Origin: Minisyncoccota bacterium
GTDB taxonomy: Bacteria > Patescibacteriota > Minisyncoccia > Phycocordibacterales > UBA2100
Length of the DNA stretch: 64,000 nt
NCBI GenBank assembly: GCA_022842645.1
Contig: JALHPE010000002.1
Location: 149,047-213,046 of the forward strand
Direction of reading: 5' to 3'
The notes under the pieces were generated by a model. The model did no database searches. It saw nothing but the letters and a program-made list of their open reading frames with translations, and was not told where the DNA came from. Position 1 is the first letter of the stretch; every line of letters begins with the position of its first letter. Position numbers and translations under genes: made by a program. This document shows, piece after piece, positions 3,560-25,781 of the stretch.

Positions 3560-4780
3560 CTACCCCCAGATTGCCTGGAGGATTGATTCTTTGGTAACAA
3601 TACGCGACGGAACGAGGCCGCCAAGAAATCCCGCAATCATAAGAGCGAGCACGCTATACGAGATCTGGAACTGAGTAAGAACCAAGCTCGTGCCACCAAA
3701 TGGTAATTGGATTGGATGTACATTGAGATACGGCTGGACGATACCAAACACCAAAATCGAACCAACCGCGATACCGCACACCGCATAAAAGAGCGACTGG
3801 AGAATGTATGAGTACACGATGATTGAGGGCGTGATGCCGATTGCTCGCAAGATCCCTATCTGGCGTTTCTTATTTATGGCGTTCACATATACGAGCACAA
3901 ATATCGTCACTGTGGCAACAGCAATCGAAATAACACTCACGAAGATGCCGATCAGATTGAAGGCATTGAGCAGTGTCCCGATATCAGCAAGAAGTTCTAT
4001 ATAACTCTTAATCTCGAGTGTCGGGAAAAGTGATTGCAGTCTGTCGCGAAGCTCGTTGATTTCAATTTTTTCCTCATTCATTTTCAAGGAAATTGACGAT
4101 GCTGCATTGAACGTGCCGAGAATCGACTCGGCTTCTTGTGTACTCACAAACGCTTGTGAGTTTGCTGGACCAAGACCCGATTCGGATATCCCGACTACGG
4201 TGTATGTTCTTGTGCCGGATGAAAAGGTGACCAATACTTTGTCTCCAATAGTTACTCCTCCCAAATCTCGATCGCTCGGGCCGGATCCACCACCCGCAAG
4301 TCCCGAACCGAGAACAATCTCATCCTTTCTCAGGGGATTAAACATGCGCCCTTCTATGATCGTTTCTGCCGTCTTAAAAACGCCTGATTCTTCATCGATG
4401 TCTATACCGTTCACATTCGCGGAAACGTAGGTATATTTACCGTCTTTTTCTTTATCATAGGCAAACGAACCGTTCACACTGTATCTGCGCACCGTCGCCG
4501 TCACCCCCGGTATTGTTTCGATTTGTGCACGGACGATGTCCTGATTTTCGATAAAATCTTTCTTTGTTGGTTCCTCCTGTGGACGAACTTGTATATCGCC
4601 TGTTGCGGTAGTGCGTACGCCTTCAGTGATACTGCTCCCAAGGCCACCAAGAATGCCTGTAATGAATAATATGTTTAAGAAGGAGAAGGAAAGAATACAG
4701 ACAAGCAGTATGGCCGTGGATTTGTTGCCCTGGGTTATGGTTTTATAGGCTAAAAAGAAAGCCGAACGAAACGTTTTCAT
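3560..4780 (-). CDS. ABC transporter permease, FtsX/MacB family
   Basis: N-terminal TM, large periplasmic domain and C-terminal 3-TM FtsX-like region; forms an operon with the adjacent ATPase. Confidence 0.75.
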   Translation of the reverse strand: MKTFRSAFFLAYKTITQGNKSTAILLVCILSFSFLNILFITGILGGLGSSITEGVRTTATGDIQVRPQEEPTKKDFIENQDIVRAQIETIPGVTATVRRYSVNGSFAYDKEKDGKYTYVSANVNGIDIDEESGVFKTAETIIEGRMFNPLRKDEIVLGSGLAGGGSGPSDRDLGGVTIGDKVLVTFSSGTRTYTVVGISESGLGPANSQAFVSTQEAESILGTFNAASSISLKMNEEKIEINELRDRLQSLFPTLEIKSYIELLADIGTLLNAFNLIGIFVSVISIAVATVTIFVLVYVNAINKKRQIGILRAIGITPSIIVYSYILQSLFYAVCGIAVGSILVFGIVQPYLNVHPIQLPFGGTSLVLTQFQISYSVLALMIAGFLGGLVPSRIVTKESILQAIWG

Positions 4781-6486: not shown

Positions 6487-6948
6487 ATGTCAGATATATC
6501 AAACAAACGACGTGAGGTGATGGAAGGCATGAGATCGTCTAATGAGACCGCGCTTAAGTTTTTGCGCATTTCGGCGGAACGTTCGGGCCTCCACCCTACC
6601 GATATGCGATCATTAGAGTTTCTTGCAAATAAAGAGGTTGCAACGGCGGGTGAACTATCGGCGTTTCTTGGCCTTACTTCGGGCGCAACAACGGCGCTTA
6701 TAAATCGTCTTGAAAAGCTCGAGATGATTGTTCGGAACGCAGATACCCACGACAAACGCATTATTCATATCCGCACGAATCCTCACAAGGCACTCACTCC
6801 CATGCTTCTCATGGGGCGGTTTATTAAGAAATTAGAGAAGTTTTTAGAAAAATATTCGGAGTCCGAGCTTGATGTAATCGCACGATGGAATGCCGACGTC
6901 GATGCCGCGTTTAAGAAAAGCACTGAAGATCTACTCAAATCGAAATAA
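6487..6948 (+). CDS. MarR-family transcriptional regulator
   Basis: Winged-HTH MarR-like sequence (ATAGELSAFLGLTSGATTALINRLEKLEMIVR...DKRI); divergent from the efflux operon. Confidence 0.65.
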   Translation: MSDISNKRREVMEGMRSSNETALKFLRISAERSGLHPTDMRSLEFLANKEVATAGELSAFLGLTSGATTALINRLEKLEMIVRNADTHDKRIIHIRTNPHKALTPMLLMGRFIKKLEKFLEKYSESELDVIARWNADVDAAFKKSTEDLLKSK

Positions 6949-7019
6949 CTAACCATGCTGCACTCATATTGCCATCAAGGTGTTTCCCCTATTATCGCCC
7001 ACTCAATGGGAAGGCACTT

Positions 7020-7650
7020 CGCTTAGAGTCAAAAAATTGACCTGCGGAATTTTTTGAACAAATCATATACTTTGCGCGAACCTTTTTCGAGGGGCGAAGC
7101 CCCTGACTTCGCACGCGCCGCGTGCGTGGTGGCTTGAGACCGCCAAGTACGCTCCGATCGCGCTGACAAGCGCCTCGGCGTGCGCGAGGACGCGCGCTGC
7201 AACCCCAAACATTTCCTTTCAATTTTTTGCGGCTCCCCCCTGACCCCCCGCCGAAAAGCGAAAAACAGAGGAAAGGAAATGTTTGGGTTGCTTCGCCGTT
7301 TTGAAAACTCCACAAGGGGCAACAAAGGCAAAGCCAATGAAGCCCCTTGCTCCGTAATCAAAACGGCGATCGAGACGCTTCAATGCGGTCTGCGTAAGGC
7401 GCAGTCATATTTGTTTATGTGCCTTGCCCCACCCGCCCAGTGCGCGGCGCGAAACCCGCCGCTACGCGGCGGCTCCCTGTGGATAACTCGCCTTGCGGCG
7501 ACATATACGTTTCGTATAATAATCGTGCGAGGCGGTTCTTTGAAAATCAATTCAGTGTTAGCGGCTATTCAATCGAAGATTGAGATGAACGCGCAAGCGC
7601 GCATCTGACCCCTCCCAAACGCGGAGGACACATTGCCCCGGCCATGTACA
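7020..7650. ncRNA. GC-rich, hairpin-dense non-coding region; candidate structured RNA (retron msr/msd-like or other large ncRNA); strand unknown
   Basis: No credible ORF; the six-frame ORFs here are Arg/Pro-rich artefacts of GC-rich DNA. Many perfect stems: GGGGCGAAGCCCC (7092-7108), CGCACGCGCCGCGTGCG (7115-7131), 21-bp inverted repeat GCAACCCCAAACATTTCCTTTC/GAAAGGAAATGTTTGGGTTGC (7199-7220 with 7276-7296), nested CGCCGTTTTGA/TCAAAACGGCG (7298-7308 with 7367-7377), CCGCCGC-TAC-GCGGCGG. It lies directly upstream of the HTH-RT gene pair. Confidence 0.4.
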
Positions 7651-7811
7651 TGCATTCGCATCACTACGATGCAGGCATGAACGTAGTAGGCGCACACATT
7701 GTCGTTGAACGACGCAGTGATTTAGTCATGTTAGTCATCCAGGCGAAGCATGTCAGCAGTTATATAAACTGCAATATAAATTGCTAGAAGTTCAAGAGGC
7801 AGGGACTATCC

Positions 7812-7878
7812 AAAATCGCGGTTACCAAACTCCCGTTTTGGGTATTACCGGATGCCCCCGATCGAAATTGGTAACCGC
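7812..7878. repeat. 11-13 bp inverted repeat ATCGCGGTTACCAA / TTGGTAACCGCGA enclosing a 41-nt loop
   Basis: Perfect inverted repeat read from the sequence, about 215 bp upstream of the HTH gene. Confidence 0.5.
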
Positions 7879-8092
7879 GAGAGTAGGATATGTCCCACAA
7901 CTTTATTAGCAGTCCGTCTCGTTAGCTAATGGATGTGGCCTATGAAAGACATTCGTATCTCACCTGAATTGTGGCATCCGTATCACGAGCCGGTTATCGC
8001 CTTACATGAGGTTTCTCAAGCTCTTGTGGCTTATCCTCCGGATAATCCGCATCTTGTACGACCTTTGGCGGTAATCGGCTCGTAGTCTTCCC

Positions 8093-8413
8093 ATGTATTC
8101 ATTCCCAGAACTAATCAAAAAAATACGAGAAGCGGCCGGCATGACGCAGGCCGATTTTGCGCGGGCGCTCGGCGTATCCGCCGTGCTAATTGCAATGGTG
8201 GAAACTGGGCAAAAAGAGGTTTCTAAAAATTTGCTTCGCAAAATTGCCGAGCAGTTAGATGTGCATCCGTCCTCCATAACACCTTTCCTGTTCGCGGATG
8301 AGAAAAAAGATACCCTGTCGCCAGTCGAGAAAAAGTTTATTCAGTGGGGCGAGCAACTACAGGAGCATTTGATAAAAGACCGTGCAAAACTTCTCAAAAA
8401 CCATGCGGCGTAG
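8093..8413 (+). CDS. XRE-family helix-turn-helix protein (Cro/C1-type)
   Basis: HTH_3-like GMTQADFARALGVSAVLIAMVETGQKEVSKNLLRKIAEQLDV; its stop overlaps the RT start (ccATGcggcgTAG). Confidence 0.7.
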   Translation: MYSFPELIKKIREAAGMTQADFARALGVSAVLIAMVETGQKEVSKNLLRKIAEQLDVHPSSITPFLFADEKKDTLSPVEKKFIQWGEQLQEHLIKDRAKLLKNHAA

Positions 8414-9401
8414 GCGATACCCAAAAATCCATATACAGAGCAAGAACGAGCTGGCAAAGCATATAGACAGCGCACGTCTCCCATATGAGAAAGCCCTGTC
8501 GCTCATAAACGATGTGCAAACTAACTTTGATACTTACTGGAAAGACCACCCTACGCAGTCCAAACCAGATAAACGTAAATGGGTACGAAATGCCGCAGGC
8601 ACACCTCTCGCACGGCTTCTTGATTTGATAAACGCAAAAGTTCTCACCCCCGCCGATCTGCTATTGCCAAGTTTCATCTTTGGCGGGATTGGCGGTTTGA
8701 ACCATAAAGCTGCCGTATTACATCTGCTCGGCAATAAGCGAAAACGGATTTTACTCAAACTAGATATAACGAGGTTTTTTGAGCAGATACGCCACGAGCG
8801 GGTCTATCACTTTTTCCGCGATAAGTGCAAATGCAGTGATAAGGGCGCAAAGATACTTGCTGACCTTTGCTGTGTCCGCCACGGCCCGAAGGAAAAACCG
8901 GACGCATATAAAACGATTGCTCGCGGCTTCGCCACTTCGTCGCGCCTTGCTGTCTGGTGCAATGTAGACACCTTCCTGCGCCTTGAGCGGCTTGTGCAAA
9001 AAGAATTGCGAGGCAAAGACCCCCGCATCGCCGTTTATGTAGACGACATCGGCATTACCGCAAGTAGGGCGTCGAAGGAGGATATGTTGCGGCTATATGT
9101 AAAAATAAAAACACTTTTGGAACAGGACAAGAATCAACCACTACCTCTAAACGACGACAAGACAAAAGTGATCTTCCATAGTGGCGAAACTTATGACAAA
9201 GACGGAAATTATCTTGGTAAATGGGCGTTTGAACATTTGGGCTTGCAGATGAATCGCAACTCCGTAACTATCGGTTCAAAAACGAGGGGAAAACTGGATA
9301 GAGCAACAAGCGAATTAGAAAAAAGTGATAAGAAAGACCAAACAACCAAACGACGCAGAGGAGCGTTCTTGAATTACAAACGGTATATCGAGGCAGAATA
9401 A
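8403..9401 (+). CDS. reverse transcriptase, retron-type-like
   Basis: RT motifs LLKLDITRFF (motif A Asp), RGFATSSRLA (retron QGxxxSPxLA-like), YVDDIG (YxDD), SVTIG (retron VTG-like). About 333 aa, the size of retron RTs. Overlaps the HTH gene by 11 nt. Confidence 0.75.
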   Translation: MRRRRYPKIHIQSKNELAKHIDSARLPYEKALSLINDVQTNFDTYWKDHPTQSKPDKRKWVRNAAGTPLARLLDLINAKVLTPADLLLPSFIFGGIGGLNHKAAVLHLLGNKRKRILLKLDITRFFEQIRHERVYHFFRDKCKCSDKGAKILADLCCVRHGPKEKPDAYKTIARGFATSSRLAVWCNVDTFLRLERLVQKELRGKDPRIAVYVDDIGITASRASKEDMLRLYVKIKTLLEQDKNQPLPLNDDKTKVIFHSGETYDKDGNYLGKWAFEHLGLQMNRNSVTIGSKTRGKLDRATSELEKSDKKDQTTKRRRGAFLNYKRYIEAE

Positions 9402-9409
9402 TTGCGCGA

Positions 9410-9649
9410 TTATACCGTTATTCTCTCGTAAATCATTTTTGAACCCTCCGACTGTCTAGGGAAATTGCCTTTTTCATCTGTGAACGACAGTTCTTTAGCT
9501 GGATGATTTGCTTTTTTCGGGAAAAGCGACAAAATATTTTTGATATCTGTGAATGGTGGTACTTCCAACTTTTCTCCCGCAACTTCTGAGGTATGAGCAC
9601 CTGATGAGAGCGACCCTGTGTTTGGATTTTCCTTCACAAGATTTCCCAT
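9410..9649 (-). CDS. hypothetical small protein (79 aa), convergent with the RT
   Basis: ORF only; weak RBS. Confidence 0.25.
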   Translation of the reverse strand: MGNLVKENPNTGSLSSGAHTSEVAGEKLEVPPFTDIKNILSLFPKKANHPAKELSFTDEKGNFPRQSEGSKMIYERITV

Positions 9650-9841
9650 CGCCTCGGCAGCTATTTGCCGATAAGTACAAACTGCAATTAGGTGTTCGGC
9701 AGTAGTTCATTCGTGATATTTCTCAAGGTCTTCGATTAACTCTTCCGTGAGATTCCACAAAGTATCCCATTTTTGGGAACCTTCTGAATAATCGATTCGC
9801 GGCGCGGCCGCCTCGGCCTTTCGGCCGGAGAAGTATTACTT

Positions 9842-10018
9842 AGTGACTCTAGCGGGAATCGGCCAAGAGCTCGTTTTGATTCCGTCGAATCAAAACTCCT
9901 CTCGGCCCTGCTCGCGCGACCCGTTCTACTAAACGGGTGCCCGCGCTCCCTTTCGATTCCCGCTAGAGGTCTACAAAAATATAGTTGGCCGACACGATGT
10001 GTCGTCCTCGTTATTTTT
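9842..10018. repeat. tRNA-Glu 3'-end partial duplications: direct 19-bp copy GTGACTCTAGCGGGAATCG (9842-9860), inverted copy TTCGATTCCCGCTAGAG (9946-9962), and an intervening hairpin-rich ~158-bp segment
   Basis: Exact 19-mer shared with 10019-10037. The segment between contains the perfect hairpins GTTTTGATTC-CGTC-GAATCAAAAC and ACCCGTT-CTACTAA-AACGGGT. Confidence 0.6.
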
Positions 10019-10019
10019 G

Positions 10020-10091
10020 TGACTCTAGCGGGAATCGAACCCGCCTTCCATCCTTGAGAAGGATGTGTCCTAGCCGATAGACGATAGAGCC
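10020..10091 (-). tRNA. tRNA-Glu (anticodon CTC)
   Basis: Cloverleaf folds by hand: acceptor GGCTCTA/TAGAGTC, D-stem GTCT/GGAC, anticodon stem CATCC/GGATG with loop TTCTCAA, T-arm GCGGG-TTCGATT-CCCGC. Confidence 0.8.
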
Positions 10092-10193
10092 GTAAGGTAA
10101 CGCCACTCAAAAGTAGCAAACATTGACCATGTAGACAAGGTATTGCGTGCGCCTGAGACGGGTGCATACTGACTGCGGGAGAAAGGAGGAAAC

Positions 10194-10361
10194 ATGGAAG
10201 AAATCGTCAACACCCCCGCCCGAAGCTCGTTGTATGAAAAATACATCGAGGAGCTTCGATGCTTCATCTGCGCATACCGCGAAAAAGATCAGGCAGGACT
10301 CGTTCATTGGGCTTCTCAAATACGAATGAGTCGCTGGGCTTTGCGCACACTGCCCGGATGA
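10194..10361 (+). CDS. hypothetical small protein (55 aa)
   Basis: Strong SD GAAAGGAGGAAAC before the ATG; followed by a rho-independent terminator (10389-10415). Confidence 0.4.
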   Translation: MEEIVNTPARSSLYEKYIEELRCFICAYREKDQAGLVHWASQIRMSRWALRTLPG

Positions 10362-10388
10362 AGTTGAGCGAATTACAGAACATCTGTG

Positions 10389-10415
10389 GCGGCCGGGAAA
10401 CCTCGGCCGCTTTTT
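10389..10415 (+). terminator. rho-independent terminator
   Basis: GCGGCCGGG-AAA-CCTCGGCCGC followed by TTTTT. Confidence 0.6.
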
Positions 10416-10417
10416 CC

Positions 10418-11716
10418 TTATCGCATGCGCCAATCCTTATCCATACGCACGAGAAGTTCTCCGGCGCGTTCGGGTTCCGCCATAATTTCAAAGACTGTCT
10501 TTTCCATGCGTATTCCCTGCGAACCTTTGACTAATACCACCACCCCCTCTTTTAATTCTGGCTCGAGTTCCTTTCCTGCGCGAGCAGATTCGTAGTGTTC
10601 ATACGAGCGGATATGTGTTTCAGGCATTCCGTTATTCAAGGCCACTTCCCCTATCGCTTTAGCGCGAAAGCCAACAGTCACAAGAAGATCAGTGGTTTTA
10701 CGAGCTACCTCACCCGCTTCTGTGTGTGCAATTTTAGAGAAACGGCCAAGCTCCAGCATATCGCCTAAAACAGCAATTCGTTTCTTTACGCCTTTGATTT
10801 CTTTGAGAGTTTCCAGTGCGGAGAGGGTCGCCGCGGGAGAGGCGTTGTAGGTATCGTCGATGATAATCGAGCCACGAATTCCCTCGAGGAGGCGCATGCG
10901 CCCCGGAGGCGGAGCAAAATGCGCAAGTGCCTCTCCCGCAGTTTCGAGTGCAATACTCGCGGCCTCAGCAACCGCGAGCGCGCAAAGAGCAGAATAAACA
11001 CGCGGTTTACCGAGTGCACCTGGAATACTTACAGAAATACGCGCATTCGAGTGCTCGCAATAAAAATGCATGCCGATCGGCTTCTTTTCTTCATATTGAA
11101 TACCTGCATCTCTCGCTACAAACGCATTCTGTCCTTCAAAGCCAAAGGTGACTGCAGAATCGGCAAACTCAGCATGGATTTTCTTTGTGTATTCGTCGTC
11201 CCCGTTGATGATGAGGAGTCCGTCAGGGCGCATATGTTCTGCAAGACGTCGCTTCTCCTGCGCGAGAGCGTGAGGAGAATCAAAGTATTCCACATGTACC
11301 GGAATACTTGGAATCGAGGTAATAACCACAATATGCGGGCGGAGCCACCGAGCGATGCGATTGATATCGCCTGGTCTGTCCGCTCCCACCTCAACTACAA
11401 GCCATGCCGGATAGGGATCATTTCCTAGTGCAGTAATGAGTCCCTGCACGAGGTTCACGACCCAGCGCCACGGCGAACCCCATCCGCTCTCAAGCCCGAG
11501 AATGGTGAGTGGTACGCCAAACTCAGAGTTATAGCTTTTTTCGCTTTTGCGCACTGAAAGCCCAGCATGAGAGAGCACGGCAAAAATCGCGTCTTTTGAC
11601 GATGTCTTCCCGGCATTCCCCGTGACAGCGATAATCTTCGGATTGCGACGTTTCAATACAAGCTTTGCTTCCCAGGTGAGGATGGCGACAACAATTGCTC
11701 TTAACACGCGATACAT
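10418..11716 (-). CDS. murF: UDP-N-acetylmuramoyl-tripeptide--D-alanyl-D-alanine ligase (Mur ligase family)
   Basis: Mur ligase P-loop IIAVTGNAGKTSSK; placed downstream of ftsI in the dcw cluster; likely start MYRVLRAIVV (ATG at 11716). Confidence 0.7.
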   Translation of the reverse strand: MYRVLRAIVVAILTWEAKLVLKRRNPKIIAVTGNAGKTSSKDAIFAVLSHAGLSVRKSEKSYNSEFGVPLTILGLESGWGSPWRWVVNLVQGLITALGNDPYPAWLVVEVGADRPGDINRIARWLRPHIVVITSIPSIPVHVEYFDSPHALAQEKRRLAEHMRPDGLLIINGDDEYTKKIHAEFADSAVTFGFEGQNAFVARDAGIQYEEKKPIGMHFYCEHSNARISVSIPGALGKPRVYSALCALAVAEAASIALETAGEALAHFAPPPGRMRLLEGIRGSIIIDDTYNASPAATLSALETLKEIKGVKKRIAVLGDMLELGRFSKIAHTEAGEVARKTTDLLVTVGFRAKAIGEVALNNGMPETHIRSYEHYESARAGKELEPELKEGVVVLVKGSQGIRMEKTVFEIMAEPERAGELLVRMDKDWRMR

Positions 11717-15661: not shown

Positions 15662-15893
15662 GGCTAAATTTTTTGGGAGGATGGAACGTGCGCGCAACCG
15701 CATTTCCCACTTTCTCCCACTAGATTAGAGTATATTCCACTATATCCCACGCTGCCTCACTTATCCACAAAAAATACCATTCAAAAGCGTCATGAAATAA
15801 TAAGAGGCGCCCGTCAAATGCATTACAACGACGAACGTTTAGGATTACTGCAGGAGCTCCGCACTGGGCGGAGTGACTGGTGAAGGAGGCACT

Positions 15894-19021: not shown

Positions 19022-20386
19022 TTAGAGATCTACCACTTGATTCAAGCTCGCACACTGGAAGTTTGCGTTGTTGCGCTGTTGCACTGCGCTGAAGACGAGG
19101 CTGGAGGTAAGAATGTCCGTCTGCGCCACGTTGTAGGACGGACTCGTACCATCACAGGTAATCGAACCATCGCCATTCACTGTCTGTTCGCCGAAGCACC
19201 ATGCGCTTCCAAGATATGCGGTTGTTGTTGCCGTGAGCGGAAGACGCGTCATGCTAACGTTCTGAAAACCACCCGTGTAGAGCGAAGTCTCTCCACTTCC
19301 CGGCTCGTAGACCCCATCGCCGTCTGTATCCCCCCAGACAAAGAGTTTGATGAAATCTGAAAGCTCACCGTTTGGAATTCCGTCGAGGAGATCGTCCCCT
19401 GCTTCAATTTCTGGTTCGATCGGCGTATTTTCGTTATCGCTCACATTTTGCGTGAGCATACATGCGTATGCATCGTTGTCATACACGTGGAGCGAAATCA
19501 CGTTCGTGCCACGATCACCTGGCTTCACGTCGTTGAAGTTCCAGAACACATCGCCGTCGGCGAGATCTTTTTCACTCCAGAGTTTGCACTGACCGTTCGT
19601 GATGACCGTCTGACAATTGAGCTCTTGTACGCGGAAATCATCCACAAATGTACCCAGAGAGTTTGCAGTACCGAGGTCGGTAAAGCGTACGCGTGTGAGG
19701 TTTGTTGTTGCAGTCACCTGCACCGTTTCTTCCTGCCACGCAATCGGACCGCCGCCGCCCGCAACATTCCCTGTGTCATCAACAACCACACCACCCCACT
19801 GTATTTCGAGTCGATTGTCGGATGCAGGTGTGTTCGGACGTGGAGCAAACTTGTATTTAATAATGTAGTTCTTGCCCGGGACTGTCGGAATGTCTCTGTA
19901 GAACGAGACAGATGCTGGCTCCCCTTGCCCGCCATCGCTCGGACCTCCCCAATCAGTGTCGAGTTCTGCGTACTGGTCGCCCTCTGCCGCAGCGCCAACT
20001 ACATTCTCGTGATATTCCATCTTGGCGACGGCCGGACGATTTTGAGAACCGAACGTCGCCGGAATATCGCTACGCCACTCAACAGTCCACCCACCCGCAG
20101 GAGAATCGAAGATGTCCCACTGAGAACCGTTTGTCACTTCTGGATCTTCAAACCCTGCTCCCGAGATTGCTAAAAGATTCCCCGGCACTTCCACACACCC
20201 GTTCTGACACTCGTCTCCGTTATATGTCTGTCTGGTGTGGTCGATTTTCAGGTCGATCGCCCCTGCGGTGAACGTGTTTCCGGTCGAAGTTTCTGTATCG
20301 GAAAAGAACGCACTCGTGCCTGTCGCAACGGCACCTCCTGCCGAGACGATGAGGAGAAGCCCCAAAACTATTCTTGATATGTTCAT
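19022..20386 (-). CDS. TasA/camelysin-like secreted protein, paralog B, with an inserted beta-sandwich (carbohydrate-binding-like) domain
   Basis: AFFSDTETSTGNTFTAGAIDLKIDH signal motif; FNDVKPGDRGTNVISLHVYDNDAYAC; ~170-aa insertion ending ...TNLTRVRFTDLGTANSLGTFVDDFRV. Start chosen at ATG 20386 (the track uses an upstream GTG). Confidence 0.65.
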   Translation of the reverse strand: MNISRIVLGLLLIVSAGGAVATGTSAFFSDTETSTGNTFTAGAIDLKIDHTRQTYNGDECQNGCVEVPGNLLAISGAGFEDPEVTNGSQWDIFDSPAGGWTVEWRSDIPATFGSQNRPAVAKMEYHENVVGAAAEGDQYAELDTDWGGPSDGGQGEPASVSFYRDIPTVPGKNYIIKYKFAPRPNTPASDNRLEIQWGGVVVDDTGNVAGGGGPIAWQEETVQVTATTNLTRVRFTDLGTANSLGTFVDDFRVQELNCQTVITNGQCKLWSEKDLADGDVFWNFNDVKPGDRGTNVISLHVYDNDAYACMLTQNVSDNENTPIEPEIEAGDDLLDGIPNGELSDFIKLFVWGDTDGDGVYEPGSGETSLYTGGFQNVSMTRLPLTATTTAYLGSAWCFGEQTVNGDGSITCDGTSPSYNVAQTDILTSSLVFSAVQQRNNANFQCASLNQVVDL

Positions 20387-20402
20387 AATTGTTGTTTTTA
20401 AT

Positions 20403-20485
20403 GTCACGGATATTTCTTTGGTAAGAAATTCCGCAACCCCGCCTCAGCATCGACATGCTTCCGGCCTTGCGATGGGGCCCCGTCC
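20403..20485. promoter_or_regulatory. about 85-bp module, copy 1, with palindromic operator-like site GGATATTTCTTTGGTAAGAAATTCC (20408-20432) 25 nt upstream of the paralog B start
   Basis: Imperfect palindrome; the module is about 75% identical to 20585-20665. Confidence 0.5.
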
Positions 20486-20584
20486 CCATCTCACCCCCGA
20501 ATTTTTAATGTGGCGCTGAATCTTGTTCAGCTTGCCGAGCACCTCGTGAGATGCTCGACCTAGCTATCCAAGACCTTGCGGTGC

Positions 20585-20665
20585 GTCACGGATATTTCTT
20601 TGCTAAGAAATTCCGCGACCCCGCCTCGGAGCCAAGCTCCTCCGGCCTTGCGACGAGCCCCCGGC
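20585..20665. promoter_or_regulatory. about 85-bp module, copy 2, with palindrome GGATATTTCTTTGCTAAGAAATTCC (20590-20614)
   Basis: Direct duplicate of 20403-20485, 182 bp away. Confidence 0.5.
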
Positions 20666-20816
20666 TCGTCGCACCCGCCTGCCGGATTTTCAGCTCTTTG
20701 GAGCTGAAAATCCGGCGAAAGTACGGCTATACCCGAGCCTCATTCGTGCAATTTCGGGCGAAATTGCACGCAAGCTCGTTTTGACCCTATCTCCTCACAA
20801 CGCGCGTTGTGAGGAG
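20651..20816 (-). terminator. cluster of four consecutive perfect hairpins immediately downstream of the paralog C stop
   Basis: Perfect 26-nt palindrome CTCCTCACAACGCGCGTTGTGAGGAG (20791-20816); CGTGCAATTTCG/CGAAATTGCACG (20745-20770); CCGGATTTTCAGCTC-TTTG-GAGCTGAAAATCCGG (20682-20715); CGACGAGCC-CCC-GGCTCGTCG (20651-20671). Confidence 0.45.
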
Positions 20817-20840
20817 ATCCTGGGTCAGGCTAGAGAACTA

Positions 20841-21773
20841 CTAGCTCTGAGGATTGCAAGAGAAGTTCGGATTGTTTCGAGACTGCTCTACGTAGAATGT
20901 CAGGTCGGCATTCCATGAATCGGTTTGTGCTTCGTTGCCCATAGTCGCACCGTTACAAACGATTGGATTACCTGGAGTTGGAGTTCCAATATCGCCCGCA
21001 CACCATGCGAGACCAATGTAACTGGTTGAACCGCCCTCAATTGGGGTATCGCCACCCTCTGCAAGTGCCCACGTTGTGGCTGCGAGCGAGCTCGCAGAAA
21101 CGGGCCCACCAAGTGCTGTTTCGCCAAGTTCAAAGACGTTATCGCCGTCGTCTGTCCATGCGAAGAACTCAAGATTGGTGTCGAGATCTCCATTGTTAGG
21201 GGTTGCATCTTCCCCTACAAGACCTCCAGATTCATCTTCTGGCTCGGTAATGCTGTTATCAGCATCGCCAATGTTTGCAATCGATGCACACATCCATGCA
21301 TCATTGCTGCCGACGTGAATCGAGATGGTGTTTTCACCATTGTCGCCCGGCTTGATGTCATTGAAGTTAAAGAATTCATCCATGCCAAGTGTGTTTTCGC
21401 TCAGGTTACCCACTGGCCATGTGCCCGTACATGCCGAGCCTGCTGTTGGGAACTGCGCAGGATTTGCAAGATTGTATGCATCCCATTCAGTTTGCTCATT
21501 CATGTTTCCAGCTGCTACAGGAGAAGACGAAGCGTTCAGTGTCACACTCGTCTCTGGAATGTAGTGGTAGGTGGCACCAACGAGTGTGCAGACCATGCCG
21601 TTGTAATGAGCGACGCTATCGATCTGAAGATCAATATCGCCCGCTGTAAACGTATTTCCCGTCGACGTTTCCGTGTCGGAGAAGAATGCGCCCGTCGAGC
21701 TTACGACGACCGCGCCCACAAACACAATCATCGCAAGAGATGCGAGGATGCGTGTATTAAGAAGTGCTGTCAT
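20841..21773 (-). CDS. TasA/camelysin-like secreted protein, paralog C
   Basis: TM plus AFFSDTETSTGNTFTAGDIDLQIDS; FNDIKPGDNGENTISIHVGSNDAWMC; C-terminal WCAGD...IVCNGATMGNEAQTDS...C. Confidence 0.7.
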   Translation of the reverse strand: MTALLNTRILASLAMIVFVGAVVVSSTGAFFSDTETSTGNTFTAGDIDLQIDSVAHYNGMVCTLVGATYHYIPETSVTLNASSSPVAAGNMNEQTEWDAYNLANPAQFPTAGSACTGTWPVGNLSENTLGMDEFFNFNDIKPGDNGENTISIHVGSNDAWMCASIANIGDADNSITEPEDESGGLVGEDATPNNGDLDTNLEFFAWTDDGDNVFELGETALGGPVSASSLAATTWALAEGGDTPIEGGSTSYIGLAWCAGDIGTPTPGNPIVCNGATMGNEAQTDSWNADLTFYVEQSRNNPNFSCNPQS

Positions 21774-21892
21774 ATATTTGTAATTTCTATTACCTACTTT
21801 TCTAATAACTACTATCTAATTTCTATTTTTTAATGTGACTCCTTGTCGGGATCGACCGTCCGACTCCGCCAGCCGGCGGACGCTCACGACAA

Positions 21893-21942
21893 AGAGCCGC
21901 GTTTTTTTTATTGAATCAGAAAACAAACGCGGCTCGTCGCGA
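21893..21942. other. long hairpin CGAGCCGCGTTT...AAACGCGGCTCG (12-bp perfect stem) upstream of paralog C
   Basis: Read directly from the sequence. Confidence 0.4.
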
Positions 21943-21985
21943 TGAGCTTAGCTTGTAAACAAGTGATGGTGAGATACACCATGCG

Positions 21986-22169
21986 GGTGAACATGCCTTC
22001 ACGTTCCCCGCCGTGAGACACTTATAGAGTAATAGCACGCGTGAACACCTGTCAATTTTTTACACAACGTTTATTTCGGTGGAAAACTATGTGGACAACC
22101 TGTCAAAGGAGTGTGGATAGTCTAGGGGCGAAAAAAGTGTACAACGTGTGAACAAACCTGTGGAAAAGC
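21986..22169. promoter_or_regulatory. array of direct repeats GTG(A/G)ACA(A/C)(A)CCTGT(C/G)(A/G)A with about 50-bp periodicity
   Basis: GGGTGAACATGCC (21986-21998), GTGAACACCTGTCAA (22041-22055), GTGGACAACCTGTCAA (22091-22106), GTGTACAACGTG plus GTGAACAAACCTGTGGAA (22137-22165). Confidence 0.45.
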
Positions 22170-22285
22170 TCTTTATTATGATATTGACATAAGGTAAAAC
22201 ACCACGGGCTACTTGCGCACTTTTCTAAGAGGTATGCCGTGAAGGCAGTGCCTACATTCCGTGGGACACAGCAAAGGAGAGTGTC

Positions 22286-22372
22286 ATGGAAGTATTGGGA
22301 ATGGAATGGTATTTGTGGCTCGCCCTGGCGATTATAGTGTGGTTCATCTACCACGTCGTCAAACCTGGGTGA
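22286..22372 (+). CDS. 28-aa hydrophobic micro-protein MEVLGMEWYLWLALAIIVWFIYHVVKPG
   Basis: SD AAAGGAGA 7 nt upstream of the ATG; single predicted TM; followed by hairpin GCCGCCTCGAG-AGCTTGC-CTCGAGGCGG. Confidence 0.4.
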   Translation: MEVLGMEWYLWLALAIIVWFIYHVVKPG

Positions 22373-22505
22373 TGTCGCGCCGCCTCGAGAGCTTGCCTCG
22401 AGGCGGTTCTGCATTGAGCACATCATGCTCGACAAGAAAAAGGTACGGGTGTAGGGTTACTCACTGGCATGCGCGCATACCTGTAGCAAAGGGAGAAGAA
22501 AGACA

Positions 22506-22703
22506 ATGCCTCAGGAAAAGCAAAAGGAAACGGACCTATCGGGGCTTCCCCCGATACCGAATCAAAACGCGGGTGAAGAAATGGGAGAGGCAAGAATTGT
22601 TCCCACTCCTCGAAGAGTGGTTGATCTTTCGGGGTTCCCGGAAGACTGCGGGGGTCATAGCATCGGAAGCAAACCGCGCTTTACTCCTCCAAGCGAACAT
22701 TAG
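22506..22703 (+). CDS. hypothetical small protein (65 aa)
   Basis: SD-like GGGAGAAG upstream; terminator hairpin downstream (22741-22771). Confidence 0.3.
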   Translation: MPQEKQKETDLSGLPPIPNQNAGEEMGEARIVPTPRRVVDLSGFPEDCGGHSIGSKPRFTPPSEH

Positions 22704-22740
22704 AAAAACATCTAACTAATCATTCATCCGCGCGCTTGCT

Positions 22741-22771
22741 GACCCTCACTTCGGTGAGGGTCTTTGCTTTT
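22741..22771 (+). terminator. rho-independent terminator
   Basis: GACCCTCAC-TTCG-GTGAGGGTC followed by TTTGCTTTT. Confidence 0.6.
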
Positions 22772-22775
22772 CCAC

Positions 22776-23177
22776 TCACTTCCCTGCTACCTTGAAATTA
22801 ACGTAAAGATTCATGCCGTAGGTCCAGAGCCCAACAAACCCAGCAATAATGATACGACTGAGAATATAGCTAAAACCAAGCACATCCACCGCCAGATACA
22901 TAAGTCCCATCACCGTAAAAAGCCCCACCCCTGCAATTGCCAGAAAAATAACATACCCCGACTCCAGCGCACGTTCCGTCTCGGGAAACACATGCTCTCG
23001 GGATAGCCAGTAGTTTAAAGAAACGGCAATAGCAAACGCGATACCCGCGGAAAAAACATAGTAGACGCCAAGAACGTCCGTAAGGAAGAAAAGAAGTGCC
23101 AGATCGAGGGCGAATGTGGAAGTGCCCACTGCGGTGTATTTGAGAAAACGCTGAATGCCTTTGGGTGGTGAGAACAT
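22776..23177 (-). CDS. GtrA-family membrane protein
   Basis: Four TM segments; GtrA-like sequence (MFSPPKGIQRFLKYTAVGTSTFALDLALLFFL...). Confidence 0.55.
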   Translation of the reverse strand: MFSPPKGIQRFLKYTAVGTSTFALDLALLFFLTDVLGVYYVFSAGIAFAIAVSLNYWLSREHVFPETERALESGYVIFLAIAGVGLFTVMGLMYLAVDVLGFSYILSRIIIAGFVGLWTYGMNLYVNFKVAGK

Positions 23178-23246
23178 ACCGGGTGATTGTAGCAAAATGG
23201 TGGACTACTCGCCTTCCGTAAAATCTTCTGGTAAAGTACTCGGAAC

Positions 23247-23319
23247 GGGCCCTTAGCTCATCTGGTAGAGCACCTCATTTGCAATGAGGGGGTGGCAGGT
23301 TCGAGTCCTGTAGGGTCCA
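23247..23319 (+). tRNA. tRNA-Ala (anticodon TGC)
   Basis: GGGCCCTTAGCTCATCTGGTAGAGCACCTCATTTGCAATGAGG...GGTTCGAGTCCTGTAGGGTCCA; G3:U70 identity pair; followed by a terminator hairpin. Confidence 0.85.
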
Positions 23320-23330
23320 CAGCGCACTAA

Positions 23331-23355
23331 AATCCTCCCCTGCGGGAGGATTTTT
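23331..23355 (+). terminator. rho-independent terminator after tRNA-Ala
   Basis: AATCCTCCC-CTGC-GGGAGGATT followed by TTT. Confidence 0.6.
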
Positions 23356-23572
23356 GGCGCTGTGGAAAGCGGAGCGTTATGAGGCCAGTAGGCCGAATCG
23401 CGAGCTAGGGTCGTGGAATTTTTTGAGCGACGGCGAGAAAAATATCCCTGACCACATACTGGAGGGCGCAAACGATGTCGCATCAGCATATGCGACCGTG
23501 CGCCGGGGTCGCGAAAAAATTCGTCCGGCGGGACGAATTTTATTTGTGACCACAACCTGCAATCTTTTTCCC

Positions 23573-24541
23573 TCATCTCCGCGCGAGTCCGATGGCATGC
23601 GTAAGATACTCCCCTCTCGAGGCTCCTACACTCTCCAGCATTGCAGGAAATGCCGCCCCATCGTAAAGCCCCGGAAGAGCATTCACCTCCAGAAGATAGG
23701 GACCACGTTTCGTTACAATAAAATCCGAACGCGAAGAATGTGAAAGCCTCAGTGCTCGGTGCGCCGCACGTGCCATTTCGGCAAGCTCCGCCTTTTCATC
23801 ATGTCCGAAATCACTTGGCACAATAAATCGTGCCTCGCCAGAGTGATGATGATCAAAGTGGAGAAACGGCGACTCTTCCGGATACATCACCCGCGCAGGC
23901 GGCAACACATACAGCTCTTCTCCACGAAAATCGTCTATCACACCTACCGTTGCCTCCTCCCCCAAAAGGTATTCTTGCACCACAGCACTTCCAAATGCTT
24001 CAAGCATGTCGGCTATTCTCTCTCCAAGTTCAACAAATGTTGCCACCAAGACGACACCATGCGAAGCGCCTTCGCGCGCCGGCTTCACGATGTAAGGGGG
24101 GCCAAACTCTTGAAACACAAAACGGCTCATCTCTGCCGTGTTCAAACCTGATGAGAGTGTGAAGCCAACCGACAGAGGCATGCGAATCCCAGCTTTTTTG
24201 AGCTCAATACCTGCTTGAATTTTGTTGAGTGAAAGGCCGGAAGCGAGCGCATTTGAACCTGTGAACGGCACACCAAGAGTCTGTAAAATCCGCTGCACCG
24301 TGCCGTCTTCCCCCGGGCCGCCGTGTAAACCATTAATCACAACATCCACCTGCGCCAGCGCACGAGCAGGCTCAACTGGAATACCGCGTGCGTGCCAATA
24401 TCCTTTTCTATCAATGAAAATATCGCGGAGGTCGTACTCGCTTTCGGGAAGTGCATTCAAAATGCTCGTACCCGTTTTGAGCGAAAGGTCGTACTCACTT
24501 GACGGGCCACCACGAAGAACACCAACAATCGTTCGTGCCAT
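23573..24541 (-). CDS. ddl: D-alanine--D-alanine ligase
   Basis: Start MARTIVGVLRGGPSSEYDLSLKTG; ATP-grasp motifs; C-terminal LLEVNALPGL. Confidence 0.8.
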   Translation of the reverse strand: MARTIVGVLRGGPSSEYDLSLKTGTSILNALPESEYDLRDIFIDRKGYWHARGIPVEPARALAQVDVVINGLHGGPGEDGTVQRILQTLGVPFTGSNALASGLSLNKIQAGIELKKAGIRMPLSVGFTLSSGLNTAEMSRFVFQEFGPPYIVKPAREGASHGVVLVATFVELGERIADMLEAFGSAVVQEYLLGEEATVGVIDDFRGEELYVLPPARVMYPEESPFLHFDHHHSGEARFIVPSDFGHDEKAELAEMARAAHRALRLSHSSRSDFIVTKRGPYLLEVNALPGLYDGAAFPAMLESVGASRGEYLTHAIGLARR

Positions 24542-24548
24542 TCGCGCA

Positions 24549-25781
24549 TCATACCATCGCGCGCCGTTGTCGTTTGCGGTGATAGTTGATAGCGAAACGA
24601 TGCGCTTCACTATTCGCAAGAAGTATTTCCTTCTCTCGCTCGAGAATCGCTTTCTGATCCCCCACCAGCCGCGAAGGACGATGAAATTCATCTTTTACTA
24701 CACCCACCAAAGGGATGAGCACGCCCGCTTTCTCTAAGACGCGCTTTGCCGCATTCATCTGCGCGGTCGAACCATCCACGATGATGAGCCGCGGAAGGTG
24801 CCACTCAGGATGCATGAGGCGACGTTGAAGTATTTCACTCAGCGCACCCGGATCGTTGTTGGTAAATCCTTTCACCTTAAATTTTCGATACTCGCTCTTT
24901 TGCGCTTCGCCGTCTTCTACCACCACCATAACTCCTACCGTCTCCGTGCCCGCAGTGTGCGCAACGTCATATGCCTCGATGCGATTGCCGCTCGCACGCA
25001 CAGAGCCCCCGCTGGCAAAACGAGCATCATCTTTTATCAGTGCCACATCACGAATATGTGTGAGGGCTGCAACTTGGCGACGAAGTGCACTCGCGTCCTC
25101 AAACCGCTCACCCTTCGCCGCCTTCGCCATTGCACGCTCGAGCTCTTTCAGGAGAGTTTGTTTCTTGCCGGAAAAGAGAAGAACGATATGCTTCACACGC
25201 TCAGCATATTCTTTCTCACTCATCTCACCGGTACATACACCAGGACACAGTCCAATCTGCCGATTAAAGCACGGCTTTCCTTTTCCGGGAGTACATTTTG
25301 AATCACGATAGGGCAAAATTTTCCGCACCAATTTCATCGCCTCGCGCAGCGCTCCTCCTTGAGGAAATGGTCCAAACAAATGCTTAATTTTTCCCCCTTC
25401 CCACTTCGTGAAAAGTTCCCTGCCGCGCACGACGATAAGCACAGGAAATGCTTCGTCAGTTATCACGAGATAGTTGAAGCTCTTATTGTCTTTTTCGTCG
25501 GTATTAAAGGGCGGTTCAAGTTTCTTGATTTCGTTTGCTTCCAGAATCAGTGCTTCAAGGACGGAATCCGTCTCTTCCCAGGTGAGGGAATCCGCCTCAA
25601 GCACCATCCCCGCAATTGCGGGAGAACGCGCCTCCACCAAATCCTTTGAAAAATAGCTCCGCACACGATCGCGCAGTGACGTCGCCTTCCCCACATAAAG
25701 CACCCGCTTCCCTTTCTGAAAGCGGTAAATACCCGGACTATCTGGCAGATCGTAGGATGTGAGTGTTTCGCGTTCCATCAA
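24549..25781 (-). CDS. uvrC: excinuclease ABC subunit C (short form, 410 aa)
   Basis: N-terminal GIY-YIG (GIYRFQKGKRVLYVGKATSLRDR), UvrBC region, RNase H-like endonuclease domain; appears to lack the C-terminal HhH pair. Confidence 0.8.
   Translation of the reverse strand: MMERETLTSYDLPDSPGIYRFQKGKRVLYVGKATSLRDRVRSYFSKDLVEARSPAIAGMVLEADSLTWEETDSVLEALILEANEIKKLEPPFNTDEKDNKSFNYLVITDEAFPVLIVVRGRELFTKWEGGKIKHLFGPFPQGGALREAMKLVRKILPYRDSKCTPGKGKPCFNRQIGLCPGVCTGEMSEKEYAERVKHIVLLFSGKKQTLLKELERAMAKAAKGERFEDASALRRQVAALTHIRDVALIKDDARFASGGSVRASGNRIEAYDVAHTAGTETVGVMVVVEDGEAQKSEYRKFKVKGFTNNDPGALSEILQRRLMHPEWHLPRLIIVDGSTAQMNAAKRVLEKAGVLIPLVGVVKDEFHRPSRLVGDQKAILEREKEILLANSEAHRFAINYHRKRQRRAMV

Follow-up and report, generated by a model that had tools for sequence, protein, structure and literature searches.

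The DNA analyzed here (the window) is a stretch of 64,000 nt from a Minisyncoccota bacterium (assembly GCA_022842645.1, contig JALHPE010000002.1, positions 149,047–213,046), in which a first-pass annotation made from the sequence had described a retron-like reverse transcriptase (RT) gene coupled to a gene for an XRE-type helix-turn-helix (HTH) protein. Both genes form the distal part of an operon on the forward strand at 7478–9401, delimited by sequence comparison and counted here with its promoter and a DnaA box, which begins about 570 nt upstream of the HTH gene. The elements follow one another in the order promoter with a palindrome at the −10 box, RNA resembling the msr and msd of retrons, hairpin around a small-protein region, HTH gene, and RT gene. 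Relatives fetched for comparison comprise 34 genome loci and 80 metagenome loci, cited where necessary by numbers with the prefix L. On this comparative evidence, we consider it probable that 7478–9401 is a complete Type VI retron operon with a nested toxin, belonging to a large clade mostly confined to the Patescibacteria, or Candidate Phyla Radiation (CPR).

The RT gene (8403–9401, forward strand) runs from an ATG at 8403–8405 to a stop codon at 9399–9401 and encodes a retron RT of 332 aa in which the catalytic YVDD is intact. The protein is matched by Pfam RVT_1 (1.4e-09, exceeding the gathering score) and by the PADLOC model RT_VI. The open reading frame (ORF) and its RVT_1 match bear out the RT originally described, whose length of about 333 aa becomes 332 aa when counted from ATG 8403. 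An alternative start at GTG 8382 would give 339 aa, and the N-terminal MxxxRYPKI conserved in homologs supports ATG 8403 as the start. As had been noticed initially, this start codon falls within the final codons of the HTH gene: the string ATGCGGCGTAG is present, and the arrangement ATGcggcgTAG, with the HTH stop codon TAG at 8411–8413, produces an 11-nt overlap. Since overlap or abutment of the two genes recurs in most of the 34 related genome loci, the arrangement is not due to chance. The RT start has no Shine-Dalgarno (SD) sequence of its own.

Three motifs picked out in the first-pass annotation, motif A (LLKLDITRFF), the QGxxxSP-type segment (ARGFATSSRLA), and YVDDIG, align with motif A, the QGxxxSP motif, and the YADD of the solved Retron Ec67 RT in a profile of 24 homologs, among which their residues are invariant or nearly so. 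At region X, just upstream of motif A, which is NAxxH in retrons with H as its most conserved residue, the window RT has K102-A-A-V-L-H107, i.e., xAxxH, with A104 invariant and H107 a majority residue only in the same 24 homologs. The more likely position of RT7, where retron RTs carry VTG (region Y, with G its most conserved residue), is the segment EHLGLQMN, in which L279 and G280 are invariant across the homologs and the V-T of VTG is replaced by H-L; the Ec67 alignment ends at residue 260. The SVTIG that had been taken for a VTG-like motif lies downstream of this segment and was probably misassigned. A phmmer search of the RT against the PDB gave no match, and a profile search against the PDB found the RTs of retrons Ec67 and Ec83 as the only similarities, both weak. 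With the canonical Type VI RT of an Aeromonas locus, the window RT shares 28% identity over 172 aa (E 9e-15), and two unusual segments, FF..K..CS...A..L.DLC and LA.W.N.D.F, are common to both proteins.

The HTH gene (8093–8413, forward strand) encodes an XRE/Cro-C1-type protein of 106 aa (Pfam HTH_3, 3.8e-14), for which the best PADLOC model is HTH_VI (1.7e-15, 55 bits) and which is 37% identical to the HTH protein of the Aeromonas locus (E 1e-10). Its length falls within the 91–110 aa of the Cro/C1-type proteins (cluster 2_1), encoded directly upstream of the RT gene or overlapping it, by which Type VI is recognized. Throughout the family the HTH start lacks an SD sequence, the median anti-SD duplex being +0.7 kcal/mol and only 2% of loci reaching −6 kcal/mol or stronger. 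It had been suggested that the HTH protein might itself be the effector; in published Type VI retrons, however, the HTH protein is an antitoxin or repressor and not the effector (10.1101/2025.10.22.683967; 10.64898/2026.04.27.721009), and by analogy it would be a Type VI antitoxin/repressor here.

The HTH-associated retron type to which the first-pass annotation had pointed is Type VI, as defined by Mestre et al. 2020 (PMC7736814); the locus fits this type by RT_VI, by HTH_VI, and by gene order. Type VI RTs are a sublineage of RT clade 3 separate from types IV and V, and the antiphage defense that characterizes the type requires RT catalysis. The published order of Type VI operons is noncoding RNA (ncRNA), small toxic protein (SP), HTH, and RT, with the SP start sequestered in structure (10.1101/2025.10.22.683967; 10.64898/2026.04.27.721009), and the order ncRNA, small ORF, HTH gene, and RT gene found here is the same. 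When the RT was searched against profiles of retron, abortive infection (Abi), unknown group (UG), and diversity-generating retroelement (DGR) RT families, RT_VI was the best PADLOC model (8e-24, 82.4 bits), ahead of RT_IV (1.4e-16, 58.6 bits), Drt3a (2.3e-11, 41.8 bits), and RT_V (38.7 bits), and neither an Abi/UG nor a DGR assignment was supported. RT_VI also ranks first for 24/24 aligned family members. The NCBIfam models matched the RT only below threshold, the matches being to retron St85, Drt3a, and group II RTs. When 1.84 billion cluster representatives were searched exhaustively with HMMER, the RT family proved to be discrete, with 57 clusters (50% identity) at E ≤ 1e-30 and 82 clusters at E ≤ 1e-10. 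Outside the clade, the full-length RTs most closely related to it are canonical RT_VI proteins (6/10 tested), which are 27–35% identical to the query and score 206–267 bits on RT_VI. With RT_VI and HTH_VI as the best models and canonical Type VI RTs as the closest out-of-clade relatives, the locus is a Type VI retron by a ranking that is profile-based rather than tree-based.

Homologs of the RT number in the hundreds, and the clade itself contains more than 100 loci. The named genomes with relatives are almost all Patescibacteria/CPR: Saccharibacteria, Paceibacterota, and Wolfe-, Jorgensen-, Uhr-, Doudna-, Magasanik-, Moranii-, and Taylorbacteria. No relative of the RT turned up when viral contigs were scanned. 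Separately, typical CPR-clade cassettes are present on contigs binned as Gammaproteobacteria, Bacteriovorax, Planctomycetota, or Bdellovibrionales metagenome-assembled genomes (L001, L006, L022, and L029), two of these contigs being short (2.5–4.5 kb); the placement outside the CPR may reflect misbinning or horizontal transfer beyond the CPR.

Upstream of the RNA is a sigma-70-type promoter (7493–7520, forward strand), with a −35 box TTGCGG at 7493–7498, a 16-nt spacer, and a −10 box TATAAT at 7515–7520. It was recognized by family conservation: in at least 54 of 97 loci, the pattern TTGACA-N8-9-TATACGTTT[CT]GTATA[AT]A.T precedes the HTH start by 484–601 nt, amid unconserved flanks, and the transcript is predicted to start near 7527. 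A perfect 6+3+6 palindrome, TATACG-TTT-CGTATA (7504–7518), lies over the −10 box, is single-copy in the 64-kb window, and is near-invariant across the family. Since the palindrome (TATACGTTTCGTATA) stays invariant while the sequence on either side diverges, we infer that it is a candidate operator for autorepression by a dimeric XRE-HTH protein. Six nucleotides 5′ of the −35 box there is a perfect DnaA box, TGTGGATAA (the reverse complement of TTATCCACA; 7478–7486, forward strand), which we treat as an associated element only. Two copies of the box are found in the 64 kb versus 0.35 expected, the other being at 15761–15769. A DnaA box lies 5–15 nt 5′ of the −35 box in L013, L016, L023, L035, L036, L053, L058, L063–65, L069, L072, L073, L075, and L082, and it is inverted in L083.

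The putative transcript (7527–8095), a structured RNA of roughly 560 nt, folds with −209 kcal/mol (z = −6.5), and the segment 7780–8100 with −120 kcal/mol (z = −7.0). Its elements, all on the forward strand, begin with a1 (GCGAGGCGG, 7527–7535), the 5′ arm of a long-range inverted repeat, which is paired with the 3′ arm a2 (CCGUCUCGU, 7914–7922) in both the minimum free energy and the centroid folds of the transcript. The a1/a2 pairing was scored by a contiguous-helix score with shuffles, RNAduplex having been dropped as too permissive because of long bulges and shared conserved blocks. A contiguous helix of 6–12 bp occupies the same two relative places in 41/41 unique loci, and the sequences that form it are unrelated between loci (for example GGACGGT/ACCGTCC, GGCTAGTT/AACTAGCC, and GACAGCGAGTTA/TAATTCGCTGTT); the shuffle p value is 0.04 in the window and is ≤ 0.05 in 34% of loci. 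Enclosed by the two arms are an msr-like 5′ domain (7536–7801), structured in the fold, and a long msd-like hairpin, arm 1 (7802–7896), which is the candidate template for reverse transcription and is supported by the fold and by compensatory changes; a2 begins 17 nt past it. A second long-range helix joins b1 (CAATTCAG, 7548–7555), in the 5′ domain, to b2 (CTGAATTG, 7964–7971), which forms the “ELW” codons inside the frame-1 ORF described below. This helix is 91% paired over 41 loci and has compensatory variants such as CAGTTTAG/CTAAACTG and CGATTCA/TGAATCG. No conserved priming G could be singled out in the leader alignment.

Arm 1 folds with −54.6 kcal/mol (z = −4.9) and contains a perfect inner stem of 13 bp (UCGCGGUUACCAA/UUGGUAACCGCGA) and a conserved apical UUACCGGAUGCC. 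Alignment of arm 1 over all 51 loci with MAFFT and RNAalifold was too gappy to give a consensus, and clade-wise alignments were used: in the clade of the window there are 19 consensus pairs, 10 of them with compensatory double changes, and in the other clades 8 compensatory pairs fall in a 10-bp inner stem. A covariance model (R1) built from the non-Saccharibacteria clades recovered arm 1 in 27 loci together with the reverse strands of near-palindromic hairpins, and its alignment was not used for counting. Two further proposals about the RNA were discarded. An extension helix of CCGUAU with UAGUCG is 79% paired and has a single pair with a double change, which leaves it unsupported, and invasion of the toxin stem by multicopy single-stranded DNA (msDNA) by way of a sequence resemblance of the stems of arms 1 and 3 was rejected, since this resemblance is not general across loci.

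Arm 3 (7985–8083), supported by the fold and by covariation, is a hairpin that encloses the candidate toxin ORF and has a 17-bp basal stem (7985–8001 with 8067–8083). In 53 nonredundant loci its 11-bp core is 95% paired and 11/11 pairs show compensatory changes; the number of double-change cells is 131, versus 37.7 ± 7 in shuffles and 8–14 in slid controls. The 5′ strand of the stem is a purine-rich SD-like segment (AGGGGCG or CCGGAGG), and the 3′ strand covers the stop codon of the inner reading frame (frame 2). The ATG of that frame lies 3, 6, or 9 nt past the 5′ strand in 48/53 loci and 8 nt past it in one more. As judged by its covariation, this stem of 11–17 bp sequesters the putative toxin SD upstream of ATG 8006, and the predicted RNA as a whole follows the layout of canonical retrons (a1, msr, msd, a2), joined to a structured toxin mRNA, in agreement with the three-armed RNA reported for Retron-Vpa2 (10.1101/2025.10.22.683967).

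The first-pass annotation had seen no other effector gene. Directly upstream of the HTH gene there is, however, a small toxin-type ORF at 7942–8085 with a second one at 8006–8074 nested in it, both on the forward strand. The longer, frame-1 ORF encodes 47 aa (MKDIRISPELWHPY...AVIGS; alternative ATG at 7933) and spans the whole of frame 2, which encodes a candidate toxin of 22 aa (MRFLKLLWLILRIIRILYDLWR) marked by coding selection and by a cationic amphipathic helix. Frame 2, at an offset of +1 nt from frame 1, has its stop 11–14 nt earlier in most loci, and its ATG stands 18–36 codons (mode 22–24) before its stop in 89/91 loci. A small coding region between ncRNA and HTH gene, which is the Type VI SP position, is found in more than 90 loci, and two overlapping open frames precede the HTH gene in 91/93 loci with enough upstream DNA. 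The exceptions to this two-frame rule are L008 (Paceibacterota, ~3560–3670), where a TGA falls early in frame 2, and L082, where the frame-1 stop comes 25 nt before the frame-2 stop; decay of the copies, sequencing errors, or lineage variation could account for them.

It is frame 2 that carries the signature of a coding sequence. In 69 unique sequences, its last 16 codons have positional entropies of 1.40, 0.95, and 1.62 at codon positions 1, 2, and 3, and amino acid identity over this stretch is 41% in frame 2 versus 20% in frame 1 and 22% in frame 3, which is never open. Among 175 isolated substitutions in 53 close pairs, 119 are synonymous solely in frame 2 (2.9× the mutational expectation), 16 are synonymous solely in frame 1 (0.42×), and 39 are nonsynonymous in both frames (0.41×). 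For the frame-2 peptides, whose median length is 24 aa, the hydrophobic moment is 0.75 (0.71 in the window), the Kyte-Doolittle mean is +1.09, and the net charge is +4; read in frame 1, the same DNA gives a hydrophilic product that is rich in proline and has a moment of 0.32. The SD-like duplex before the frame-2 ATG has a median of −6.4 kcal/mol and is −6 kcal/mol or stronger in 58% of loci versus 4.6% of control ATGs. The SP toxins described in the literature form helices, the C-terminal one being hydrophobic or amphipathic, and are 49–79 aa long when the Aeromonas comparator is included (10.64898/2026.04.27.721009); the frame-2 peptide is shorter than any of them. Because the coding signature, the synonymous bias, and the amphipathic helix all lie in frame 2, this frame likely encodes the SP-equivalent peptide and hence the toxin.

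Frame 1, the frame that gene callers annotate, is maintained in a different manner. It is open in ~92/93 loci and in 72/72 unique sequences, versus 18.7 ± 3.5 (maximum 32) after synonymous resampling of frame 2, and frame 3 is open in 0 of the 72. Across the family it is 45–70 codons long, its ATG comes a few codons after an in-frame stop, and in most loci its own stop lies 5–20 nt before the HTH ATG (7 nt in the window). The frame-1 start has a strong SD in the Saccharibacteria subclade only, with −7.2 kcal/mol in the window. Searches of frame 1 against Pfam and PADLOC gave no match and no similarity to known SP clusters. Its “ELWHPY” block has no codon periodicity (entropy 1.05, 1.01, and 1.00), and identity there is equal in the three frames; by this pattern the block is conserved as RNA. 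Given that frame 1 is kept open, that its stop is near the HTH ATG, and that the HTH gene has no SD, we infer that it is a leader ORF for translational coupling to the HTH gene and then to the RT gene.

The locus was compared with Retron-Vpa2, Retron-Sen3, and Retron-Cle1 by published description rather than by sequence. Retron-Vpa2 of Vibrio parahaemolyticus (Zhang et al., 10.1101/2025.10.22.683967), for which control by msDNA-dependent translational derepression is proposed, has the same order of ncRNA, small protein, HTH, and RT, its toxin ribosome-binding site and start are likewise buried in stem-loops, and long-range inverted repeats join the arms of its three-armed “hybrid RNA.” However, the SP of Vpa2 is a single ORF of 55 aa, whereas here a peptide of 22–31 aa appears to be encoded within a longer, unconserved ORF, in its +1 frame; in addition, the HTH start here lacks an SD, the host belongs to the CPR, and the RT is only ~28% identical to canonical Type VI RTs. 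The triggers of Vpa2, lambda Red and RecBCD, are a feature of that system (10.1101/2025.10.22.683967). Retron-Sen3 of Salmonella, of the cl2075 lineage (Garcia-Rodriguez et al., 10.64898/2026.04.27.721009), is proposed to be controlled by posttranslational neutralization of the SP by the HTH protein. The locus resembles it in its module of SP toxin, HTH antitoxin, and RT, in an SP coding sequence under RNA-structure selection within an extended transcript, and in the amphipathic, hydrophobic C-terminal helix of the SP. It differs in that the Sen3 SP is 79 aa long with a helical-bundle fold and single-stranded DNA (ssDNA) is made constitutively; there is no detectable sequence similarity between the small proteins, and no nested frame is reported for Sen3.

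The canonical comparator is the Type VI locus of Aeromonas caviae plasmid p12BC1_GES-5 (LC735978.1, L119), where an HTH gene (103 aa) also overlaps the RT gene (317 aa) and an upstream small ORF, MNTKPNHNQQALSKTKSKKWKGYVWKGIKWILKLGVWMYRINQLLDGDS, ending in ...WKGIKWILKLGVWMYRINQLLDGDS, has an amphipathic C terminus. Its RT scores 335 bits (8e-101) on RT_VI and its HTH protein 116 bits (1.8e-34) on HTH_VI, compared with 82 and 55 bits for the window. Unlike the nested arrangement proposed here, its SP is a single-frame ORF of 49 aa with its own SD, and its HTH gene follows after a 34-nt gap and has a strong SD (AAGAGGAG). Two details of this locus (20330–25767) stand apart from the comparison: the retron lies on a mobilizable IncU resistance plasmid beside Hok/Gef and AbiEii/AbiGii toxin genes, in what amounts to a small defense/addiction island, and the SP ORF (1848–1997 in the locus) is missing from the gene table of the record. 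Retron-Cle1 of Candidatus Levybacteria (Mestre-729), reportedly tested by Khan et al., is likewise a CPR-encoded Type VI retron, and to that extent this kind of system is already on record. The features that appear from the sequence to be new here are the nested toxin and leader frames, the SD-less HTH start, and the conserved operator.

In the type I toxin-antitoxin system hok/mok/sok, a short toxin ORF of the membrane-active type is overlapped by mok, whose translation governs translation of the toxin, and the toxin SD is sequestered by long-range pairing of the mRNA. The likeness, which implies no homology, would be that here too a structure-sequestered toxin ORF lies within an overlapping ORF proposed to govern its translation. 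It differs in that no antisense RNA is evident here, control being presumably exerted by the retron RT, the msDNA, and the HTH protein, and in that the overlapping ORF also appears to feed translation into the antitoxin and RT genes. We see about an even chance that the effector of this CPR-wide Type VI clade is a +1-frame peptide of 22–31 aa, with an enclosing leader that carries ribosomes to the SD-less HTH and RT genes and gates the buried toxin start as a hok/mok-style switch, and with the −10 operator and, in some lineages, the DnaA box adding transcriptional control.

In the mechanism proposed for the operon, transcription would begin near 7527, and a dimer of the HTH protein would repress the promoter through the palindrome at the −10 box. 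Ribosomes translating the leader ORF would reach the HTH gene by termination-reinitiation and then the RT gene by way of the ATGnnnnnTAG overlap. The HTH protein might also restrain the toxin, reverse transcription, or both, as in Retron-Sen3 and Retron-Vpa2. The RT would prime near a1/a2 and copy the msd hairpin (arm 1) into ssDNA of ~100 nt, and the toxin start would stay locked in arm 3 until infection. On phage infection, msDNA might accumulate, as in Vpa2, or control by the HTH protein might be lost, as in Sen3, and the toxin hairpin would open. The amphipathic peptide would then be made and growth of the infected cell would stop, which would amount to abortive infection.

The RT could instead be a stand-alone defense RT of the defense-associated RT (DRT)/UG or Abi kind, or the remnant of a group II intron or DGR, with the HTH gene an ordinary neighboring regulator. 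The weak matches to Drt3a (2.3e-11) and to a group II intron RT (3.1e-07) would accord with this, as would the nonliteral VTG and NAxxH. Against it, RT_VI beats every other PADLOC model with all family members concordant, HTH_VI is best for the neighboring gene, and more than 90 loci share the synteny of the gene pair with the RNA upstream of it. An Abi/UG-type RT, which the first-pass annotation had kept as an alternative, is disfavored by the same ranking, Drt3a reaching only 46.4 bits versus an NCBIfam cutoff of 200, and no Drt3b-like second RT lies nearby; Drt2 is also far below its cutoff. For a group II intron RT, TIGR04416 gives 29.9 bits versus a cutoff of 300, and Rfam, run at gathering thresholds on the whole window and with permissive E values on 6900–10200, found tRNAs only and no retron or intron RNA family. 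For a DGR, there is no direct repeat longer than 22 nt in 6500–10500, i.e., no pair resembling template and variable repeats, and no DGR model is among the matches. A stand-alone RT or such a remnant is extremely improbable. The locus could also be a genuine Type VI relative that no longer defends, having become a selfish toxin-antitoxin addiction cassette or a regulator in reduced symbiont genomes. The scan of viral contigs found no relatives, the core chromosome context is beside the division and cell wall (dcw) cluster, inverted hairpin elements that may flank the cassette in close relatives are a hint of mobility, and in Sen3 the HTH and SP form a toxin-antitoxin pair independent of the RT (10.64898/2026.04.27.721009). 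The catalytic motifs of the RT, the msd-like hairpin, and a1/a2 are nevertheless kept across ~60–80 sequence clusters, which argues that reverse transcription is still under selection and makes loss of defense quite unlikely.

The identity of the toxin can also be read otherwise. If the frame-1 ORF (47–50 aa) were the true toxin, the conservation of frame 2 would be a by-product of RNA-structure constraint. This ORF is the longer of the two, has a good SD in the Saccharibacteria subclade, is the choice of the gene callers, and is near the length of published SPs (49–79 aa), and selection on RNA structure in the region can mimic conservation. Yet its amino acid identity (20%) is at the level of the control frame (22%), there is a deficit (0.42×) of changes synonymous only in frame 1 and an excess (2.9×) of changes silent in frame 2 alone, the entropy order of position 2 below position 1 below position 3 belongs to frame 2, and a proline-rich, hydrophilic product of low moment is unlike the helical published SPs; a frame-1 toxin is therefore unlikely. 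A toxin of ~47 aa made as a frame-1/frame-2 fusion by programmed +1 frameshifting, with a polar N terminus and an amphipathic C terminus, would reproduce the architecture and length of canonical SPs (Aeromonas, Vpa2), and frame 1 does have the better start in some clades while frame 2 is open well 5′ of its ATG in many loci. However, the frame-2 ATG is fixed 3, 6, or 9 nt past the stem with an SD-like motif 8–14 nt upstream, which is the geometry of a start site, and frame 2 is closed just 5′ of its ATG in several loci (e.g., L004 and L020), so that such a fusion seems very unlikely. The reading we prefer remains a Type VI retron whose toxin would be the frame-2 peptide started at its own ATG.

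Several observations weigh against this preferred reading. The window RT scores only 82 bits on RT_VI versus 207–335 bits for canonical members, and the retron signatures NAxxH and VTG are not literal (KAAVLH, and EHLG by our placement). The per-locus significance of a1/a2 is modest, with a median shuffle p of 0.07, and the covariance model from other clades missed arm 1 of the window at E ≤ 0.01. The SD before ATG 8006 is weak in the window (−2.9 kcal/mol), and the case for coupling through frame 1 consists of its openness, the position of its stop, and the missing HTH SD. All counts over related sequences refer to loci that share phylogeny and so are not independent. Synthesis of msDNA, toxicity, DNA binding by the HTH protein, and defense are putative for this locus; the two published Type VI mechanisms disagree, and either could apply. 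Cle1, the sole CPR Type VI retron known to have been tested, was reportedly assayed by Khan et al. as RT plus predicted ncRNA only and gave no detectable ssDNA.

Type VI is the least understood retron type, and two preprints of 2025–2026 propose differing control logics for it. The clade described here may offer a natural variant of the translational layer, with a nested toxin frame, an SD-sequestering stem, and a leader coupled to the HTH and RT genes. Small-protein annotations in loci of the clade are probably in the wrong frame, with the consequence that searches for SP homologs miss the real peptide. If the promoter/operator and the a1 arm are as distant from the HTH gene as in this locus (~570 nt upstream), clones of RT plus ncRNA only, such as the one used for Cle1, would lack both. 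The locus further suggests that ultrasmall CPR genomes retain a retron of the abortive-infection type.

On the window contig, the cassette is flanked by an ABC-efflux/MarR unit on one side and by a tRNA-Glu gene and the dcw cluster (murF, ftsI, mraW, and mraZ) on the other. The initial description of an RT and HTH gene pair beside a structured noncoding region and a tRNA gene was right that both neighbors exist, the RNA lying upstream of the pair and the tRNA-Glu(CTC) gene at 10019–10091 (reverse strand; Rfam scan) being real, but the tRNA does not belong to the system. Since a tRNA is near the cassette in just 8/28 related genome-collection loci (plus the window contig, L115) and the isoacceptors differ, the tRNA is incidental on this comparison and no part of the retron. 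The 3′ end of the tRNA-Glu gene is duplicated, 22 nt at 9840–9861 being identical to 10016–10037, with an inverted copy at 9952–9968. These copies produce a perfect inverted repeat of 15 bp (9847–9861/9954–9968), which flanks 92 nt between the RT and tRNA genes and has no Rfam match. The duplication could be a tRNA-derived element, an element resembling a miniature inverted-repeat transposable element, or an old att-site scar. Convergent with the RT gene is an ORF of 79 aa (9410–9649, reverse strand) that has no Pfam or PADLOC match; its conservation (55–62% identity) is confined to L035 and L036, the two closest relatives, where it too lies 3′ of the RT gene, and it is not a family-wide partner.

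On the other side, the 830-nt noncoding stretch between the MarR gene and the retron RNA contains an imperfect 37-nt inverted repeat (73% complementary) at 7293–7369. Upstream of the retron promoter at 7204–7287 there is also a hairpin element with a perfect stem of 17 bp (CCCAAACATTTCCTTTC...GAAAGGAAATGTTTGGG), which is without a downstream copy in the window and occurs among relatives in L035 (888–1120 and 4479–4570), L001 (4398–4448), and L093 (2741–2837). In the closest relatives a second, inverted copy of this hairpin lies 1.4–2.9 kb 3′ of the RT gene, as if the two copies bounded a mobile cassette.

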